Source of the DNA: a virus | Lineage: Duplodnaviria > Caudoviricetes | Length of the DNA: 64,000 nucleotides | Reading direction: 5' to 3' (one strand) | Virus record (IMG/VR): IMGVR_UViG_3300025120_010521 | Part shown: piece after piece, positions 3,241 through 64,000 of the stretch | Layout of the letters: each line of letters starts with the position of its first letter | Position numbering within the stretch: the first letter of the stretch is position 1 | Position numbers and translations under genes: made by a program | Notes under the pieces: model-generated | Database searches by the model: none | Told to the model about the DNA's origin: nothing | The model's input: the letters and a program-made list of their open reading frames with translations, nothing else

Positions 3241-3920
3241 ATAAAGATTACGGGAAAAGCATAGTTGAAGAAATATTCAACACTAAAGTTAAGGCAATGT
3301 ATAAAAATGATTATGCAAGTAGTCGTGCCGTGTACTCAGATTCTAATTTTATATATAAAGTTTTTCGCAAAGAAACAGTAGTTGAGCAGTTTAAAAAATT
3401 CTTACAAAATTATCAAGGTGACTTAAAACTACTTGATACTTATGAAAGTGATGAACTAGTTATATTTAAAATGAATAAACTGCCAGGCGAAACTATGTTA
3501 TTAAGATGCAAAGATAAAAATAAAACTTCTATTGATTTGCCTGTGCTAATGTCTTGGTTTAAACAACAGGTACATGAAATACATAACACTGGTGTTAGAT
3601 GCTACAACAAGTATGATGAATATAAGATTAAAGATGACCCATGGGGGAATGGATTTATATTTACATTTTGTGATTGGACCAATGGTAATTTTTTATACAA
3701 CGAAATAGATAAAAAACTGTATCTAATAGATCTAGAGCCAGTTAACTGGATTCCAAGAAATATATGGAATTGTATTGTTAGAGATCATTTTAGGACTTTT
3801 ATTAAAAATTTTGCTGTTAAAGGTTTAGAGGATCCTAACTATGTATCACATTTAGAAGATATAATAGTAGAACAACTGTCAAAAGAAATAGCATTATTTG
3901 GGCACTACACTAGTGATTAA
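3237..3920 (+). CDS. Kinase-like phosphotransferase, paralog of 2467-3240
   Basis: FIYKVF, KLPGET, CDWTNGNFLY...LYLIDLEPVNWIP shared with the upstream gene; ATGA overlap. Confidence 0.55.
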   Translation: MNKDYGKSIVEEIFNTKVKAMYKNDYASSRAVYSDSNFIYKVFRKETVVEQFKKFLQNYQGDLKLLDTYESDELVIFKMNKLPGETMLLRCKDKNKTSIDLPVLMSWFKQQVHEIHNTGVRCYNKYDEYKIKDDPWGNGFIFTFCDWTNGNFLYNEIDKKLYLIDLEPVNWIPRNIWNCIVRDHFRTFIKNFAVKGLEDPNYVSHLEDIIVEQLSKEIALFGHYTSD

Positions 3921-3921
3921 A

Positions 3922-3992
3922 AGGTGTCTTAGTCCTGTTTTAAAGCGTCTACAAGCGTCATACAGTGTGTGAACTAGTGTTTGACGCTTGTA
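3922..3992. other. Two adjacent stem-loops in the convergent intergenic gap (terminator and/or repeated element)
   Basis: AGGTGTCTTA-GTCCTGTTT-TAAAGCGTCT (3922-3950) then TACAAGCGTCA...TGACGCTTGTA (3950-3992). Confidence 0.5.
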
Positions 3993-4019
3993 CTGTTAAA
4001 ACCCTATTTAAAAGAAGAT

Positions 4020-4463
4020 TTAAGCCAATGCTTGTATTCTATCTCTAAGCCTTTCAGCCCTATTTCCTACTTGTTTTGCCCAACGTGAGTCCATCATTTC
4101 AACGGCCGCTGTGTTCCAGTCGCTGTTATTCACTCCAGCAATAAACTTTTTAAATTTGGCCAATCTTGGAGCACCCATATTGAATGTCATATTTACAATA
4201 ACTTCTTGTGCTTCGCTAGGTAATTCTGTTAGATTAGGAAATACTTTTTTTGCTTCACTTATATAAATTGCAACGTCACTATCAAAAACTGCATTTACTC
4301 TTTGTTCGTTTACAAGAGTGCCTACGGGTTTTCCATATTCTTCGTCTGCTTCTGTAATTAAATGTCCAATACCAAATGTAGGATAACCTAAGTGATCGTT
4401 ATACACTTCGTATTTGACTCCTTCATCTATTTTAAGTTGTTCTCTTAATTTATCTACGTTCAT
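4020..4463 (-). CDS. T4-type lysozyme (GH24) endolysin
   Basis: DEG...YNDHLGYPTFGIGHL catalytic region; NMTFNMG; DSRWAKQVGNRAERL. Confidence 0.9.
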   Translation of the reverse strand: MNVDKLREQLKIDEGVKYEVYNDHLGYPTFGIGHLITEADEEYGKPVGTLVNEQRVNAVFDSDVAIYISEAKKVFPNLTELPSEAQEVIVNMTFNMGAPRLAKFKKFIAGVNNSDWNTAAVEMMDSRWAKQVGNRAERLRDRIQALA

Positions 4464-4492
4464 TGTTTTATCCTTTTACACGTACAATTTAT

Positions 4493-5689
4493 TTAGTTAA
4501 AGTTATAGTGTTTGCTTATCTCTGGAAAATGTTTTGAAAAATCTAAGTTTCTTGTTTTATCAATATTTTTTATTTTTTTAACAAATCCTTGAGTAGCTGA
4601 TTGATCTGTTTTTGTATCTAATCTTTTTAATATTTGTTGAGACTTATCTAAAAATACTTCTTTTTGTTTTAATGGCAGTGAGTTAGCAAACTGGTAAAGA
4701 TTATCCTTTGCTTCTTGCTTTAGTTCTTGTGGCATGTGTTCCATGTTATACTCATTACCTTCAACCATATTAAAATCGTAAGTATCTAAATTACTATCTA
4801 AGAAAAACTTTATTAGTTTTGTAAAATGAATAGCATTATAAGTTCCAATTGTTATCTGCGGTTCTACCCATATATTAGGATTGTCTCTTAATTGTAATAG
4901 GTTTTGTTCTAGTTGGTTCCATATCGTACCATATCTAATATATTCTGCTTGTGGTCCCATAGCATCTATACTTGGTGCTATACTAACTCTTTTAAAATGT
5001 TTCCACAACTCTGTTGTATCTTTATTCTTGTGTGTTAGCTTTAGGATATTACTATTGTAATGTAAATTAACATCTGTTCTTTTAATGTCTATTAACTTTT
5101 CTAGTATATAGTAGTGTTCGTCCATTACTAACGGTTCACCACCTGCAAAATAAATTGACTCTACATTTTTAGCATGGTTATCTATAAACTCATATGTTTT
5201 ATTTTTATCATCAAAATTGTTTAATATTTTGCCTTTGTCTGATTTCAATTCTGCCTGCCATTTACTACTAAATTCTGGACCGCACATAATACAAGCCATA
5301 TTACATATATTACTAAAACGTACATCCCAATACTTTGCAGATACTTCTGTTAAAGTTCCATCTTCTTTAGTAATATCTTTTATTGTATTTTTTACTTCTT
5401 TTGTCCATGGATGGTATTTTTCTAATATTGTTCTAAAACTTTCTCCTAAGACTTCTTCTTTTCTATAACACCTTTCGCAACCTTTTGGTTCAAGATTATT
5501 CATCATTTCTTTACGCATAGTTTTAGCTTTAGGAGAATTTATAATTTCTTCGTAGCTTTGCGTCTTAATGTTACCCCAAAAATTATTTGCTGTCCAATGT
5601 AAACAACATGGCATAACTGTTCCGTCTGGGTTTGTGCTTAATCCAATCCAAGGTAATGGGCACCATGTGTCTAATATCTTTCTGCTCAT
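4493..5689 (-). CDS. Radical SAM protein with N-terminal twitch/SPASM-like Cys domain
   Basis: WCPLPW...PCCLHW...CERC, then CNMACIMC and FAGGEP. Confidence 0.85.
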   Translation of the reverse strand: MSRKILDTWCPLPWIGLSTNPDGTVMPCCLHWTANNFWGNIKTQSYEEIINSPKAKTMRKEMMNNLEPKGCERCYRKEEVLGESFRTILEKYHPWTKEVKNTIKDITKEDGTLTEVSAKYWDVRFSNICNMACIMCGPEFSSKWQAELKSDKGKILNNFDDKNKTYEFIDNHAKNVESIYFAGGEPLVMDEHYYILEKLIDIKRTDVNLHYNSNILKLTHKNKDTTELWKHFKRVSIAPSIDAMGPQAEYIRYGTIWNQLEQNLLQLRDNPNIWVEPQITIGTYNAIHFTKLIKFFLDSNLDTYDFNMVEGNEYNMEHMPQELKQEAKDNLYQFANSLPLKQKEVFLDKSQQILKRLDTKTDQSATQGFVKKIKNIDKTRNLDFSKHFPEISKHYNFN

Positions 5690-52786: not shown

Positions 52787-52842
52787 CTAGTATATGGCAC
52801 CTTAAAACTGGACTAAGACGCCATTATATACTAGTATTTATA
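52787..52842 (-). promoter_or_regulatory. TATAAATA late promoter followed by a long 5'-UTR hairpin
   Basis: TATAAATA 52835-52842; CTAGTATA..TGGCGTCTTA-loop-TAAGGTGCCA-TATACTAG abutting the AGGA SD. Confidence 0.6.
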
Positions 52843-52844
52843 AA

Positions 52845-53000
52845 CTATATTCCTTGCATACGATCATCTTTAGATAACAAGTTTTTTTTGGCTTTTGGCC
52901 TAGCAACAGAGTCTTGTGAGCGTTTTCGTAAAATTGCTTTAGCACTGATTTTGCGTTTTAGATCTGCTAAGGGTTTCTTTAAATCCCATTTAAAGTTCAT
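52845..53000 (-). CDS. 51-aa basic peptide downstream of the riboswitch, not in ORF track
   Basis: MNFKWDLKKPLADLKRKISAKAILRKRSQDSVARPKAKKNLLSKDDRMQGI; strong SD AAGGAGG. Confidence 0.75.
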   Translation of the reverse strand: MNFKWDLKKPLADLKRKISAKAILRKRSQDSVARPKAKKNLLSKDDRMQGI

Positions 53001-53028
53001 ATCACCCTCCTTATGTTAAAAGTTAGGT

Positions 53029-53071
53029 GCGTTCCTTCGCTTATGCTACTTCCGTCCCATTGGGATGAACG
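53029..53071 (-). ncRNA. glnA-type (glutamine-I) riboswitch aptamer
   Basis: CGTTC-A-TCCC(AAT)GGGA-CGGAAGTA-GC(ATAA)GC-GAAG-GAACG-C: P1 CGTTC/GAACG, P2, E-loop GGAAGTA/GAAG and short P3 match the glnA consensus. Confidence 0.8.
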
Positions 53072-53081
53072 ATTGTACTAG

Positions 53082-53089
53082 TATTTATA
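53082..53089 (-). promoter_or_regulatory. T4-type late promoter TATAAATA driving the riboswitch transcript
   Basis: Exact TATAAATA ending 10 nt upstream of the aptamer. Confidence 0.6.
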
Positions 53090-54092
53090 TACATAAAGTT
53101 TCAAATTGTAGCATTAATCTATTTTCATTACCTATTCCACCATCGCCTTGTAATTTGAATGGTTTTGCCATATGGTATCTTTTGTTGTCCCAACTAATTA
53201 ATGTTCCTGGTTGACCAAAATATAAGATTTTATTTAATGATAACCCACTTAATTTTTCTATTGGAAATTGTTGTTTAAATCTACCTATTATGTTTGGGTT
53301 TGTTATAGGCTTCATCATCTCCATATAGTCCTTATGGGGGAAAGGTTTGTTAGTTAATCCTCTTACATATTCACCAAATCTTTCAAATAAGCCATTGTCA
53401 TCTTTACACCAAGTTATGCAAGGTCTTTTCATTTCATCGAGATTATCAACATTATTAACTATATCATAATATGTACTATATGGAAACCATTGGTCAAATA
53501 TAATTGTAGCTTTGTCTGGTTGTGCATCTAAGTTTACTAACCCTTGATGTGCATATTTAAAATATTCTACAGGATCATATTCTTGTTTTAAATATTTTGG
53601 ATGATGTTTTGGTCTTGGTGATTTATTTTTTAATTTTTGAAAGATGTCTTGACCATCACAATGAATTTTTAATGATGACCCAAAATTGTGAAATGCAACA
53701 TCAACAACCTTAGCAGGTCTGCCTATTTCTTCAAATCTTTTTTCCATTATACTAATAGTATCTTTTAGCCAGTTGTTATATTTTTGTATAAATTCAAATC
53801 CATCATCTTTGTGCCAAAAATCTAACTGTACTCTTTTTTCTTTACTATGTTTTTCTTTATTTCTAATAGCTGAAACAATTTGACTCCATACTACATCCGG
53901 TGTTCCTTTTCTACTAAAATTTGCTTCTTCTATTCTCATGTATGACTTATCATGGTCAAATTTTTCAATTTTGTTTAATACATCATTATACAATTTCCAA
54001 TATCCATCAGTGACAAATTTTAATTCTGATTCATTAAAAAAATTTGGATACTGCAAAGAGTCATATAGATTTTCATTATAAAATTTATTCAT
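53085..54092 (-). CDS. Putative 2OG-Fe(II)/cupin oxygenase
   Basis: LKIHCDG...ISWDNKRYHMAK...RLML. Confidence 0.45.
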   Translation of the reverse strand: MNKFYNENLYDSLQYPNFFNESELKFVTDGYWKLYNDVLNKIEKFDHDKSYMRIEEANFSRKGTPDVVWSQIVSAIRNKEKHSKEKRVQLDFWHKDDGFEFIQKYNNWLKDTISIMEKRFEEIGRPAKVVDVAFHNFGSSLKIHCDGQDIFQKLKNKSPRPKHHPKYLKQEYDPVEYFKYAHQGLVNLDAQPDKATIIFDQWFPYSTYYDIVNNVDNLDEMKRPCITWCKDDNGLFERFGEYVRGLTNKPFPHKDYMEMMKPITNPNIIGRFKQQFPIEKLSGLSLNKILYFGQPGTLISWDNKRYHMAKPFKLQGDGGIGNENRLMLQFETLCI

Positions 54093-55026
54093 TACAGTCC
54101 TTAACAGTTATATTTGGAAAAGGCTTATCTTCTAATCCAGATGTATTTTCTAATACATTAATTTTAAATTCTATTTTACTAGAACTTATTTCTTGTAAAT
54201 TTACTATCCTTTGATAATAACTATGAGAGCCAGTAAATGGTCTATTAGGATGATTTGTCATTACATAATCTTTATCTAAAGTAGCATTAAAATATAACAT
54301 TGCGTTATCGTTAATTGATGGCTTTGTTTTAAAATCAACCACAGATTTAATATATGCGTTATCATATAAATCTAAATCATCAATAGTTTTAAATTTAAAT
54401 AAGGTATGATCAGACTCTGATTGAGAAAGTTTATAATAGAACTCCGTAGTATCGTCGCCACCTACAAAGTAGGCTGTATCTAATAAATCATTTGGTAATA
54501 ATGATTTTAATATTTCTAACTTAACTGGTGCCTGAACACAGAAATCTAGATCTTTTTGTTTAGGTACTATATAATTGCCATATGCTTTTAATTCAAATTG
54601 TTCAGGTATTTGTTTTGGAACATTATATCTTTTAACAAAATCTAAAAAATCGTACAACATTCTACTTTCAAAAAGATGATCACCAATACATTCAGAAATG
54701 ATTAGATCCACTTTTAAATTAGATTTTTCTTTTAAAAAGGATTGGCTTGTTCCTACATATACTTCTATAATATCTTGCATGTTGTTTATTTTTATATTGT
54801 GTTTAAGCTGTTCTGCTACAATTAGATCTTCTTCAATTGCGTAAACTTTTTTTGCACCAAAATGTGCGGCAATTATTCCAAGTACTCCAGTTCCTGCACC
54901 AAAGTCAATAACCGTATCTCCTTTGGTAACTTTGTTTTCAATTGCTTTAAAATATAAAGACATTCTGTAACTGTCGTTAACCATAATGTCGTGTGATATA
55001 GAATTTATATACTTGCCTTTAAACAT
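54085..55026 (-). CDS. PRMT-like class I SAM-dependent methyltransferase
   Basis: HDIMVNDSYRM, VIDFGAGTG, KKVYAIE, VDLIISECIG...FE (double-E loop). Confidence 0.75.
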   Translation of the reverse strand: MFKGKYINSISHDIMVNDSYRMSLYFKAIENKVTKGDTVIDFGAGTGVLGIIAAHFGAKKVYAIEEDLIVAEQLKHNIKINNMQDIIEVYVGTSQSFLKEKSNLKVDLIISECIGDHLFESRMLYDFLDFVKRYNVPKQIPEQFELKAYGNYIVPKQKDLDFCVQAPVKLEILKSLLPNDLLDTAYFVGGDDTTEFYYKLSQSESDHTLFKFKTIDDLDLYDNAYIKSVVDFKTKPSINDNAMLYFNATLDKDYVMTNHPNRPFTGSHSYYQRIVNLQEISSSKIEFKINVLENTSGLEDKPFPNITVKDCNE

Positions 55027-60527: not shown

Positions 60528-61301
60528 TTATCTGTCAACAACTTTATTTGTATAATCCACTGCAATTTTAATATCAATCCATTCAGTTGGTTTTAACGTT
60601 GTTTTCCACCCTAGTTTCTTTAATTCTGAATTATCTGCTGTATTATCGTCAGCTTCTGCATCTTGGCCTTCTTGTATAGGAACATCATATCCTGCATGTT
60701 TTACTATATCAGATACTTTATATCCTTGGCCAGTTCCAACTTCGTAAGTTGTATTTCTATTTTCAGTTCCTTGTTCAACAAATATCATTATTGCTGAAAC
60801 AACATCTTCTACATAAATTAAATCTCGTATGTGTTCTGTAGCAAATTTAACTGTGCCATTGCGTATTCTTGACATTAGCATTGTATCTCTGGCTCCGTCA
60901 CCAAATACTGTTGTAAATCTTAGACCAACTTGCCCAGGATGTGCTACTGCCTCCATTGCTTTTTTGCTTGTGCCATATGGTGACTTCCACCATGCATGTA
61001 CACAAGATGAAGATGCATATACAACAGGAATATTATTTTTATGACATAGGTCAAATATGTTTTTACTATATTCTACATTAGTTGTCCAGTATAATTCTGG
61101 TTCTTTTAAACTACGTCTTACATCTGCTATTGCGGCCAAATGTACGACAAAGTCAATATCTGCTGGTATAGTAGCAGGAGAAAGGTCTTTGATATCTTTC
61201 CCGTGTGCTCTATCCCATTCAATAACTTCATGTCGACCAGCTAGTCGTTGGACTAGATGTTTTCCAATAAATCCTGTACTACCTGTTACAATTATTTTCA
61301 T
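60528..61301 (-). CDS. NAD-dependent epimerase/dehydratase
   Basis: VTGSTGFIG, HLAA, YASS, YGTSK, RDLIYVED. Confidence 0.9.
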   Translation of the reverse strand: MKIIVTGSTGFIGKHLVQRLAGRHEVIEWDRAHGKDIKDLSPATIPADIDFVVHLAAIADVRRSLKEPELYWTTNVEYSKNIFDLCHKNNIPVVYASSSCVHAWWKSPYGTSKKAMEAVAHPGQVGLRFTTVFGDGARDTMLMSRIRNGTVKFATEHIRDLIYVEDVVSAIMIFVEQGTENRNTTYEVGTGQGYKVSDIVKHAGYDVPIQEGQDAEADDNTADNSELKKLGWKTTLKPTEWIDIKIAVDYTNKVVDR

Positions 61302-64000
61302 GCTGACTCAAATAAACTTTCAAATACTGATGATGTTTTTGTTGATTCTAAATCCCAACCTAATTCACTCATTAAGTTACTAACTTTTTGATCAATAATA
61401 GATTGTTCCATACCATCATGATCAAAAGGAAGTTCTTTAAACCATTTTGGAATATTTAACTCATCAATTGGATATGCAATAGATGTAAAGTTCATTGGAT
61501 TTGCTTTTAATTTACACACAATAACCTTTTGTCCATCCATAATTGGCAATGAATATAAATCTTTATATGCACTACGCATTGAATTCCAATTAATACTTGC
61601 TCTTACATGTCCTGGCATTACTGGTTTTTTAATTTTGCCATTTGCACCACCATTAGCCATACGTGATGTAGCACGTTTATATTTTTCAATATCTTGCACA
61701 TATTTGGTTAAGTTGTTTACACGTTTTGGAGTGCCTTTTTCCCAACCAGGTCTGTCTGCAAACTTACGTTTGAATTCTTGTATTGCTGTTAATATTTCTT
61801 TTTTATCAACACCTGTTAAAACTTGTAACAATATGTCTGATAAAAAGTTTTGTACAAAATCAGGAGTATCAGATCTTTTTAAATCAAGCCCCATTGCTTT
61901 TAGTTTACCTGGCTTGTCAACATCTTGCCTATTACCTTCTAAATCATATATTAATGCCGCATATCTTTTCTTTGTGATAAACAATCCTTTTGATGCAACC
62001 ATTTCTCTACCACCTTTAATAATTTCACCATTCTCACGTGGCACATTTGTTGCTTTCATCATAAATGGTGGAAATGATTTGTTTACTTCATCTGCTATGC
62101 TATCATATAATTCAATAACACTTTCTTTAGTCCACGGCAATGCACCACTTTTAACATCTTCTTTAACCATTGGATATGCTGAGAAATAAACAGAGTCTGT
62201 ATCACCATATATAATTGATTTACCTACATGATCATACTCACCTGTCATTATTTGATTTGTGATTGCACCCATGTGTTTTGTGATTGTTCTACCTGTGAGT
62301 GTAACTGACTGACCTATTCTCTGATCAAAAAATCTACATCCAGGATTTAGTATTGCACCGTATAAACTATTCAAGTTAATCTTTTTAACAAGTTGTCTTT
62401 TATCCCAAAACTCTATTTGTTCTTTATCACCACTTGCAATAGCTTCACGCATTTTGCCTTGTAATACTTTTCTTTCTGCAAACCATGTTTCTAACAATCC
62501 AGGAATAACTGCTTTGGTAGTTGTATCAAATATTGTACCATTTGCTGACAAACACCAACCTTGATTTTGATGGAATACAATTGCATATACTTCTGCTCCA
62601 CTCATTTGTTCTGTAGTTCCATCTTCAAAGTCAACAATAATTTCTACTCCGCGATCTTTTTCCATAACTGCTGTGTACTCAATTGTACCAAACATTCCTT
62701 CCCATGCATCTGCGGCAGACTTTTTTTCTTTATAAATTTTGTCATTAATATATTTTTCTGTATGTGTTGGTCTTAACTGTCCAACTATAGTTTCTGGACC
62801 CATATTCAAACATCTAATTACACTAGGATATAGTGAATTAATATCAATTGATGCAATCCAATCATGCAAACCTTTTTTAGGTTTTGCTACATAGGCTCCA
62901 ACTGCCGCACCAGATGAGTGAGGCTCTCTATATGGTCTATTTGGAATAATAAGTCCACGTTTATGTGCTTCATTTACAATTGCTTGTTCTGTTTGTGCAA
63001 CTGCACCCATCGTTGTTTGTAGTAACACAGTATTAGAGTGTGCTAACACATTTGCTAAATCAATAAATTTTAATTTGTCATCAAGTTTTGATAGTAGTGC
63101 AACGTCTTGTCTTGAATAAGCAATAAATTTTTCAAAGTCTTCATTGTAAAGTTGATCAAGTGTTCCTTCATATGGAACTTTCTTTTCATTAACTTCATAC
63201 TCACCAATTGCATCAAGTCTATATGAGTGCATTTCATGATATGTGTATTTCCTATATAATTCCAAATAATCTAAATGTACACGGCCAAAGAAATCAAATG
63301 TTTGTTGTTCATTACCAAACTTTGTAAACATTCTTTCACGTGGATATAAGTCCCACAAACTAAAACGTCTAACATCATCTTTGCTCAATACCATTTCAGT
63401 TCTGTTTACAATGTATGGAATATCAAAACCTTCACTATTCCATCCGCTTAATATATCTGCATCTTCAATTAAATGTAAGAATGTGTTTAGTAATTGAGCT
63501 TCCGTTTCACACAATACAGTATTGTCAAACTTTTTAGCAATTGAATCTGCCATTTCAAATGGCATGTCTTTTGGAGCAAGACATAGTGTAATTAAACTAT
63601 CTAACCAATTAAGATGTACACTGATTGCTGTAATACGTTGATGCGGATCATTTGGTCTTGCAAATCCACGATTCTTATCAAAGTCTACCTCAATATCAAA
63701 TAGTGCTACATGTAGGTTTGGTGCTTCTTTTTCAATATAATTTTCTTCTAAGCATCTAAAAACAGGATTGAGATCTGCTTCATACAATCGCTGACCTTCA
63801 TATAGTTTCTTTTCTCGTTGAAATGATTTATTGTTTAGTGTTTCGAACTTACTTAATGGGCGATTATGTATTGATGTGTGTTGCCCATCTTTATCTTCAT
63901 AATAGAATCTATATGTTGTTGGAAAAGTTTTGTATATTCTTTTTCCATCAATACGTTCTACTATATTGATTTGATCTTTATCTCTATTTAAATATGCGTC
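61298..64000 (-). CDS. Family B DNA polymerase (T4 gp43-like), 5' end beyond the window
   Basis: Exo I FDIEVD, SIDINSLYP, KINLNSLYG, YGDTDS; frame stays open from 63787 to the window end (DAYLNRDKDQINIVER...). Confidence 0.95.
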   Translation of the reverse strand, partial: DAYLNRDKDQINIVERIDGKRIYKTFPTTYRFYYEDKDGQHTSIHNRPLSKFETLNNKSFQREKKLYEGQRLYEADLNPVFRCLEENYIEKEAPNLHVALFDIEVDFDKNRGFARPNDPHQRITAISVHLNWLDSLITLCLAPKDMPFEMADSIAKKFDNTVLCETEAQLLNTFLHLIEDADILSGWNSEGFDIPYIVNRTEMVLSKDDVRRFSLWDLYPRERMFTKFGNEQQTFDFFGRVHLDYLELYRKYTYHEMHSYRLDAIGEYEVNEKKVPYEGTLDQLYNEDFEKFIAYSRQDVALLSKLDDKLKFIDLANVLAHSNTVLLQTTMGAVAQTEQAIVNEAHKRGLIIPNRPYREPHSSGAAVGAYVAKPKKGLHDWIASIDINSLYPSVIRCLNMGPETIVGQLRPTHTEKYINDKIYKEKKSAADAWEGMFGTIEYTAVMEKDRGVEIIVDFEDGTTEQMSGAEVYAIVFHQNQGWCLSANGTIFDTTTKAVIPGLLETWFAERKVLQGKMREAIASGDKEQIEFWDKRQLVKKINLNSLYGAILNPGCRFFDQRIGQSVTLTGRTITKHMGAITNQIMTGEYDHVGKSIIYGDTDSVYFSAYPMVKEDVKSGALPWTKESVIELYDSIADEVNKSFPPFMMKATNVPRENGEIIKGGREMVASKGLFITKKRYAALIYDLEGNRQDVDKPGKLKAMGLDLKRSDTPDFVQNFLSDILLQVLTGVDKKEILTAIQEFKRKFADRPGWEKGTPKRVNNLTKYVQDIEKYKRATSRMANGGANGKIKKPVMPGHVRASINWNSMRSAYKDLYSLPIMDGQKVIVCKLKANPMNFTSIAYPIDELNIPKWFKELPFDHDGMEQSIIDQKVSNLMSELGWDLESTKTSSVFESLFESA

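Follow-up and report, generated by a model that had tools for sequence, protein, structure and literature searches.

A type-1 glutamine riboswitch in a tailed-phage contig and the small basic protein family behind it, with relatives in phage lysis cassettes

We analysed a 64,000-nt stretch of DNA from a tailed virus (Caudoviricetes; IMG/VR record IMGVR_UViG_3300025120_010521), hereafter called the window, which carries on its minus strand a type-1 (glnA-type) glutamine riboswitch followed by an unannotated gene for a basic protein of 51 amino acids (aa). The riboswitch is a member of a class already known in phages; what is new is that this known sensor is wired to a previously undescribed small-protein family, here called family A, which is linked to lysis cassettes, and that the helix thought to mask the ribosome-binding site (RBS) is comparatively supported. 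Taken as a whole, our reading, in which a translational glutamine switch at the 5′ end of a late mRNA would govern a lysis-regulating peptide, has in our judgment an even chance of being right. No description of the family-A peptide, of its lysis context or of covariation in the expression platform was found in the literature searched, the coverage of which was incomplete.

An earlier note on this DNA, made from its letters alone, had described an exact TATAAATA on the minus strand, followed by a 43-nt element with the P1, P2, E-loop and minimal P3 of the glnA motif. All of these are present as described: in minus-strand order, TATAAATA (53089-53082) is separated by a 10-base gap from the element CGUUCAUCCCAAUGGGACGGAAGUAGCAUAAGCGAAGGAACGC (CGTTC...GAACGC, 43 nt, 53071-53029). 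The Rfam covariance search bears out the class assignment, since RF01739 (Glutamine) matches at 53073..53026 (-) with 56.9 bits, above the gathering score of 35 (E = 6.9e-10 over all 64 kb), the match covers the full model (1-53), and the conserved junction bases are all identical to the consensus. The full-length score and the consensus junction confirm that the element is a real type-1 glutamine riboswitch and not a chance match. Membership in RF01704 (Glutamine-II, or Downstream-peptide), which the same note had brought up, does not hold, the score being 14.2 bits against a gathering score of 33. Glutamine-II RNAs of marine picocyanobacteria precede ORFs (open reading frames) of 17-100 aa (PMC2864571); they share a related ligand-binding core with the window RNA, and their ORFs are mostly DUF4278. 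The parts of the aptamer in the window are the following.

53026-53073, minus strand: type-1 glutamine riboswitch aptamer (RF01739)
53071-53067 with 53034-53030, minus strand: aptamer P1
53065-53062 with 53058-53055, minus strand: aptamer P2
53054-53047, minus strand: aptamer junction CGGAAGUA, identical to the consensus
53046-53045 with 53040-53039, minus strand: aptamer P3
53038-53035, minus strand: aptamer GAAG, identical to the consensus

Over 74 viral cassettes, including that of the window, pairing amounts to 100% in P1, 94.6% in P2 and 88.7% in P3, and two-sided changes are seen in three P2 pairs and three P3 pairs. The C located 3′ of P1 is invariant (71 of 71 distinct sequences), and the G of J2/3 also agrees with the consensus in the window aptamer. 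In the solved aptamer these two bases form a ligand-dependent linchpin pair (PMC6212724, PMC11477058), and on the strength of that literature C53029 would be the linchpin C; by the same analogy, the window RNA is expected to respond to glutamine.

The interval between the aptamer and the protein gene contains the elements of an expression platform, and here too the Shine-Dalgarno (SD) sequence and the Lys/Arg-rich 51-codon ORF proposed earlier were recovered.

between the aptamer element and the ATG at 53000, minus strand: leader CACCUAACUUUUAACAUAAGGAGGGUGAU, read directly
53025-53029, minus strand: switching tail CACCU, directly 3′ of P1, in fixed-register pairing with 53007-53003
53006-53012, minus strand: SD sequence AAGGAGG, read directly
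53003-53007, minus strand: anti-tail GGGUG, overlapping the 3′ end of the SD and ending 3 nt before the ATG
52845-53000, minus strand: gene for the 51-aa basic protein of family A, with its ATG at 53000 and TAG at 52847-52845

The CACCU/GGGUG helix, together with an inner CUU/AAG stack over the SD, appears in both the minimum free energy and the centroid folds (ViennaRNA), and the distance from the SD to the start codon is the same across aligned viral cassettes. When 100 cassettes were compared, cells in the fixed register were Watson-Crick in 69% of cases versus 24-40% at seven other offsets, and swapping the tails between sequences lowered the score by 10.6 standard deviations (z = 10.6). 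In a MAFFT alignment of 74 sequences the tail/anti-tail helix is 98.6% paired and three of its five pairs change on both sides; at one position, 39 sequences have C-G and 27 have U-A. When the partner strand is shifted by 1-3 columns in this alignment, pairing across the whole structure falls to 30-51%. The alignment omits 14 of 88 cassettes, mostly of the YRG family, whose leaders have a different architecture, while the 100-cassette test takes them in.

In Synechocystis, the type-1 switch of gifB activates protein synthesis (Klahn et al. 2018, PMC6212724); its authors called the mode of action unclear, and postulated that the RBS is held in pairing by the conserved C after P1 and the adjacent bases until glutamine draws the C into the linchpin. 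In the window, CACCU would pair with GGGUG in the absence of glutamine, overlapping the SD and the spacer, and the inner CUU/AAG stack would cover the remainder of the RBS. Upon binding of glutamine, C53029 would be pulled into the aptamer as part of the linchpin pair, so that the masking helix would open and the 51-aa protein would be translated. Because the covariation gives comparative support to the published model, and because the first base of the tail is the very base needed by the bound aptamer, we are fairly confident that the element is a translational ON switch. The two systems share the aptamer family, the location in the 5′ untranslated region before a small basic protein gene and the postulated ON mechanism. 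They differ in that the window element is encoded by a phage, is preceded by a late-promoter-like box rather than an NtcA promoter, and has a target other than DUF4278/IF17; its tail is CACCU as opposed to the cyanobacterial CGCCUC, and its masking helix has support from covariation, whereas the mechanism was left open for gifB (PMC6212724).

An OFF switch, or a target other than translation initiation on the 51-aa ORF, such as mRNA stability or read-through into the downstream S8 protease gene, is in our view very unlikely. Aptamers of the same class do precede proteobacterial amt and glnA genes, where repression by glutamine would be the expected logic, and there is no terminator between the peptide and S8 genes. 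However, the tail of those amt/glnA leaders is a different one (CAUGCAAA) and their spacers are long, the S8 gene has a TATAAATA box of its own, and neither the sequence nor the fold revealed a terminator hairpin between the aptamer and the ORF. Moreover, the tail that pairs with the RBS starts with the base that the bound aptamer requires, which predicts ON.

The switch appears to be placed at the very beginning of its transcript. T4-type late promoters consist of a box at about -10 without a -35 element, and are found before late genes; two copies of such a box are of concern here.

53082-53089, minus strand: T4-type late-promoter-like box TATAAATA, exact match
52835-52842, minus strand: second TATAAATA box, part of the exact repeat TATAAATACTAGTA

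In the window, TATAAATA is depleted (5 matches vs 14 +/- 4.3 expected from shuffles), and all 5 copies are on the coding strand, 29-125 nt upstream of an ORF. There are exactly two copies of the 14-mer TATAAATACTAGTA, one ahead of the aptamer and the other, at 52842-52829, ahead of the S8 protease gene, for which its box may serve as a separate late promoter. Among 100 non-redundant viral cassettes, 41 have a TAAATA box ending 5-8 nt before P1, with a sharp peak at 6 nt; the corresponding gap in the window is 10 nt, and the box lies 5-12 nt from P1 in 10 of the 11 cassettes with the window's peptide family (window counted). By analogy with T4-type late promoters, we infer that the box is used as such, with a transcript start about 6 nt past it and the mRNA beginning about 5 nt before P1, only a few bases upstream of the aptamer. 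Metatranscriptome contigs from four runs in three studies contain the 3′ half of the aptamer and the ORF start of a 90-95% relative.

The 51-codon ORF is, on comparative grounds, a real gene. Its product has a pI of 10.9, with Lys and Arg making up 16 of its 51 residues, and comparison of the window gene with six homologues gives pairwise dN/dS values of 0.10-0.35. Four cultured Pelagibacter phages, the podophages HTVC023P, HTVC103P and HTVC104P and the myophage Mosig, encode homologues of equal length (59-68% identity), and at least 207 IMG/VR viral contigs encode relatives of family A. At 90% identity the family falls into 13 clusters, and searching exhaustively with a profile brought up 55 clusters at the 50% level; every one is small and carries no name. 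Given an alignment of 27 sequences, AlphaFold2 models residues 3-33 as one helix and the basic tail at lower confidence, for a mean pLDDT of 76.5. The peptide matches no Pfam, NCBIfam or PHROG family, and yields no Pfam hit, including DUF4278 (PF14105) with its YRG repeats, at E up to 10. Kinship with DUF4278/IF17 was ruled out, hhalign giving a probability of 0.1% against phage YRG peptides and NCBIfam nothing. Prompted by a hydrophobic stripe that seemed visible by eye, we also considered a disruptin-like membrane peptide, disruptin-like peptides being cationic amphipathic lysis peptides, and abandoned the idea because the hydrophobic-moment test did not support it (0.11 for residues 3-26 vs a shuffle mean of 0.24).

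We then turn to what the peptide might do. Family A is unlike the other families behind the aptamer because most of its members lack one: of the 78 related viral loci that extend far enough upstream, 22 have an aptamer and 56 do not, and an Rfam check of sampled loci of both kinds agrees. The co-occurrence of peptide and riboswitch in related phages, raised in the earlier note, was thus found at these 22 loci and in Mosig, the aptamer preceding the family-A peptide in Mosig and in myophage contigs. It is the riboswitch-less homologues, built into tightly coupled lysis cassettes, that lead us to propose a lysis role. At locus L146, the block comprises, in order, a small transmembrane (TM) protein, a holin (PHROG 3427; Pfam GTA_holin_3TM, PF11351, 40.7 bits vs 24.8), the peptide, a ~125-aa TM coiled-coil protein whose N-terminus holds the TM helix, a protein of ~74 aa that begins with a hydrophobic stretch, and an Amidase_2 endolysin, with the genes overlapping or abutting each other. 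Elsewhere (L198, L178, L209 and L163) the block varies: M15 replaces the amidase, the endolysin comes right after the peptide, the peptide follows the TM pair, or there are two copies of the peptide. Adjacency to lysis genes persists through these changes in gene order, including that of L209, and in endolysin type (amidase or M15).

At least one lysis-block neighbour is found within 2.5 kb at 54 of the 57 aptamer-less loci. Among the 38 aptamer-less loci having at least 2 kb of downstream sequence, an endolysin lies within 2 kb on the same strand in 25, and a TM coiled-coil gene within 1 kb in 32. None of the 24 aptamer-bearing loci (window counted) has a holin, TM coiled-coil or 74-aa gene nearby. 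Prediction of a complex between the L146 peptide and its TM coiled-coil neighbour gave a score of 0.00, which counts neither for nor against an interaction.

Two side observations concern these cassettes. L163 contains two diverged family-A copies (233-385 and 977-1129), one on either side of the TM coiled-coil and 71-aa genes, immediately ahead of the M15 endolysin. In addition, L146 (3153-3748) and its homologues in Pelagibacter-podophage-like contigs have a conserved pair of genes between the peptide and the endolysin, coding for an acidic coiled-coil protein of ~125 aa with an N-terminal TM segment and for a ~74-aa protein with two conserved Cys; the pair looks like an unannotated candidate of the spanin type.

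If this context is informative, the peptide would act as a cytoplasmic lysis accessory or regulator, for instance as an antiholin-like timing factor, and lysis late in infection would then respond to the glutamine (nitrogen) status of the host. The phage T4 antiholins RIII (cytoplasmic) and RI (periplasmic) delay lysis on a signal, and they resemble the peptide by analogy only: in both cases a small non-membrane protein is encoded with lysis genes and could set timing in response to a cue, but there is no sequence similarity, and the cue, superinfection in T4, would here be intracellular glutamine read by an RNA. Glutamine could either delay or promote lysis. The more specific proposition that marine phages of heterotrophs set their lysis timing via a glutamine RNA switch, the peptide being antiholin-like and made only while the host is nitrogen-replete, is tentative and on balance doubtful.

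Several points weigh against the reading as a whole. The lysis role is guilt by association, derived from gene neighbourhood; the TM coiled-coil and 74-aa proteins next to the peptide have no annotation either, their PHROGs (20984 and 24646) being labelled "unknown"; and the counts of aptamer-less loci are not independent, because many of these loci belong to related phages. No TM coiled-coil gene exists in Mosig or Melnitz, both of which carry the riboswitch, and most aptamer-bearing contigs place the peptide beside the capsid gene gp23 or a peroxiredoxin-like gene, away from lysis genes. The peptide itself lacks both a membrane segment and amphipathic character. With regard to the switch, the ON direction is founded on one homologous system plus a model, and the metatranscriptome contigs, one of which reaches 201 nt upstream of the relative's aptamer, neither locate a start nor prove transcription. 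In view of the neighbourhood basis, the neighbours without a known function, the kinship of the loci and the exception provided by Mosig and Melnitz, we place a role as a cytoplasmic lysis accessory or timing factor at, or slightly below, an even chance.

Alternatively, the peptide could be a nitrogen effector, functionally analogous to IF7/IF17, through which the phage would import the loop whereby high glutamine shuts down glutamine synthetase (GS). The only experimentally studied type-1 switch does turn on IF17, a small basic GS inhibitor (PMC6212724), genuine DUF4278 peptides are found in about one fifth of viral cassettes, and the peptide families behind the aptamer are all small and basic; furthermore, the aptamer precedes amt, glnA and gltD-like genes in SAR11-family, SAR116 and SAR86 genomes, which places glutamine sensing within the nitrogen control of likely hosts. 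Like IF7 and IF17 (gifA and gifB), the peptide is small and very basic and would be under glutamine and nitrogen control. However, it has no sequence or profile similarity to them, as the Pfam, hhalign and NCBIfam searches described above indicate, and it keeps company with lysis genes: its aptamer-less homologues are located in lysis cassettes and not beside metabolic genes. Control of GS via inhibitory proteins has, moreover, been described as unique to cyanobacteria (PMC6212724). We therefore regard a nitrogen effector as improbable. Of the two roles that the earlier note had suggested for the peptide, lysis timing thus gains from the aptamer-less homologues in lysis cassettes, while inhibition of nitrogen assimilation loses ground for want of similarity to DUF4278/IF17.

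It is also conceivable, though somewhat unlikely, that the peptide has some other function, such as a nucleic-acid or ribosome binder, a DNA counter-ion, an internal virion protein or an anti-defence factor, and that its adjacency to lysis genes reflects merely a late-gene neighbourhood. Its extreme basicity, single predicted helix, disordered tail and lack of a membrane segment would suit such a function, as would its position in T4-like contigs, where it follows the capsid gene gp23 and is sometimes found beside the gene for S-adenosylmethionine (AdoMet) decarboxylase, an enzyme of polyamine synthesis, and the absence of the TM coiled-coil partner from phages of the riboswitch type. On the other hand, translational coupling to lysis genes (-4, -1 or +2 nt between neighbours) is seen again and again whatever the order of the genes or the type of endolysin, and family, fold and atlas searches gave no match pointing to another function. 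As a separate observation, in the T4-like contigs L126-L130, in which the peptide comes after gp23 and AdoMet decarboxylase, manA (RF01745) and freshwater-2 (RF02980) are situated directly downstream (4217-4583), so that three structured RNAs lie inside 700 nt.

Glutamine riboswitches in phages have been published for T4-like cyanophages (PMC9964418, PMC9602691), and for the Methylophilales phage Melnitz, the Pelagibacter phage Mosig and pelagimyophage contigs (Buchholz et al. 2022, PMC9004378). The aptamer class and the setting in marine myophages are the same as here, and Mosig even has the same peptide family behind its aptamer, but none of these papers points to the peptide behind the aptamer as the target of regulation, while the gene, its expression platform and its lysis context are identified in the present analysis. 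Instead, the switch in Melnitz was assigned to an upstream two-piece tmRNA, with speculation on a curli pore (PMC9004378).

Riboswitches act on sequence downstream of them. The idea that the aptamer is part of a two-piece tmRNA upstream of it, or regulates one, is almost certainly wrong for the window, where neither ARAGORN nor Rfam finds a tmRNA. The tmRNA feature deposited for Melnitz does overlap the aptamer, and the riboswitch is taken to control ssrA (PMC9004378), yet Rfam locates the tmRNA at 3574-3991 and the aptamer at 3999-4047 of the Melnitz sequence (MZ577097, our L001), and the aptamer is followed by the same type of leader and an unannotated plus-strand ORF for a basic protein of 32 aa (ATG at 4070). 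The Melnitz record annotates a minus-strand CDS (4093-4194) at the site of this small ORF, and stretches its tmRNA feature over the aptamer. Given this placement of tmRNA and aptamer in Melnitz, and the lack of a tmRNA in the window, the published control of tmRNA in Melnitz is probably a misassignment, and we find it simplest to assume that the small ORF downstream is the target of the switch in each of these phages.

A scan of IMG/VR for the aptamer core yielded at least 120 contigs, almost all sharing one layout: aptamer first, then a leader of 17-37 nt containing a strong SD, then a small basic ORF. YRG-repeat peptides, which pass the Pfam threshold for DUF4278 (26-37 bits vs 25.3), occupy about one fifth of the viral cassettes. 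Sorting by motif revealed at least four further families of basic peptides behind the aptamer besides family A and YRG: the Melnitz-type family (28-38 aa, with a 'W..YC' motif), the 'GTSGY' family (64-65 aa, with the aptamer in 24 of 26 loci), the '..NPFYP' family (45-55 aa, with tandem aptamers in 9 of 9 loci retrieved with one member), and a fourth of 78-83 aa. Single members of these further families gave nothing above threshold in Pfam or NCBIfam. Families C and D, of the GTSGY and ..NPFYP type, almost always carry the aptamer and yielded no aptamer-less contexts, so they offer no test of the lysis link.

The immediate surroundings of the cassette in the window include the following genes.

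52777-50924, minus strand: Peptidase_S8 gene, downstream of the peptide gene, with its own TATAAATA box
53085-55026, minus strand: genes for a 313-aa PrmA-like methyltransferase and a 335-aa protein, absent from L139 and L144
55571-56023, minus strand: Peptidase_M15_3 endolysin gene (Pfam 76.7 bits; PHROG 894, endolysin)

The peptide gene lies, as the earlier note had it, just upstream of the S8 protease and tail genes, the Peptidase_S8 gene being followed by one for a 1654-aa fibre-like protein. In the closest relatives, L139 and L144, in which the peptide is 90% identical to that of the window, the order is M15 endolysin, 102-aa gene, terminator, CTAAATA box, aptamer, peptide and S8 protease, with the peptide cassette 613 nt from the endolysin. 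The genes for the endolysin, the 102-aa protein, the peptide, the S8 protease and a 125-aa protein are contiguous and 84-92% identical in these relatives, whereas tblastn found no match there to the methyltransferase or the 335-aa protein; the latter also has no Pfam or PHROG match. By this comparison, the gene pair at 53085-55026 is a recent insertion specific to the window, separating the riboswitch cassette from the endolysin block. The cassette would therefore originally have been 613 nt from the endolysin in the window's lineage as well, and it is the insertion that now puts the window endolysin 3 kb from the peptide. The possibility that the peptide is a substrate of the PrmA/PRMT-like methyltransferase or of its 335-aa partner was considered and found unsupported, both genes being missing from relatives that keep the cassette.

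Comparison of the DNA polymerase (61298-63787, minus strand) with those of other phages shows that it is closest to jumbo myophages, namely Phosso (52%), Atu_ph07 (48%) and GAP32-like phages (44%), Phosso being a Sinorhizobium phage and Atu_ph07 an Agrobacterium phage. The nearest relative, L144, is a 69.6-kb contig rated 19% complete by CheckV. The window, with a GC content of 33.0%, probably comes from a jumbo phage well over 300 kb which shares several genes with Pelagibacter phages: its M15 endolysin is 51% identical to HTVC023P gp49, and an Asp/Arg-hydroxylase-like gene is 54% identical to a Mosig gene. Because the peptide, the M15 endolysin and the hydroxylase-like gene are common to Pelagibacter phages, a host of the SAR11 type, or a similar AT-rich marine heterotroph, appears plausible.

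Outside phages, the same aptamer core is found in cyanobacterial genomes before YRG/IF17 genes. At five cyanobacterial loci it precedes ORFs of 46-52 aa with the pattern 'AR.LM....R....NRQQ...SR.AAEIG', which may resemble IF7 (gifA) and not IF17. Proteobacterial genomes carry the aptamer as well, so that, against a statement made in 2018, the class is not confined to cyanobacteria. The nine proteobacterial carriers are labelled as Pelagibacteraceae, SAR116, Rhodobacterales, SAR86 and other Proteobacteria, and their aptamers, with CAUGCAAA or CGACCGUU as the tail, are situated 80-160 nt before amt-, glnA-, GS- or gltD-like ORFs (named from N-terminal sequence only). Judging by these sequences, glutamine sensing by type-1 RNA occurs in SAR11-family, SAR116 and SAR86 genomes, that is, in the kinds of bacteria suggested as hosts.

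For marine phages, in which the targets of the switch had been unclear, the present findings name the regulated gene, a conserved small protein missed by annotation pipelines, and the RBS-masking helix, only postulated before for the type-1 class, gains comparative support. The presence of the same protein in the lysis cassettes of related phages provides a first functional lead. If this lead holds, it would directly link a host metabolite to the timing of phage lysis in SAR11-type systems, and few virus-host pairs in the ocean are more abundant than these. If lysis is indeed timed by glutamine, the latent period, and hence the burst size, would track the nitrogen status of the host, and the unrelated basic peptides found behind the same aptamer in hundreds of viral contigs may be further outputs of the same sensing module.

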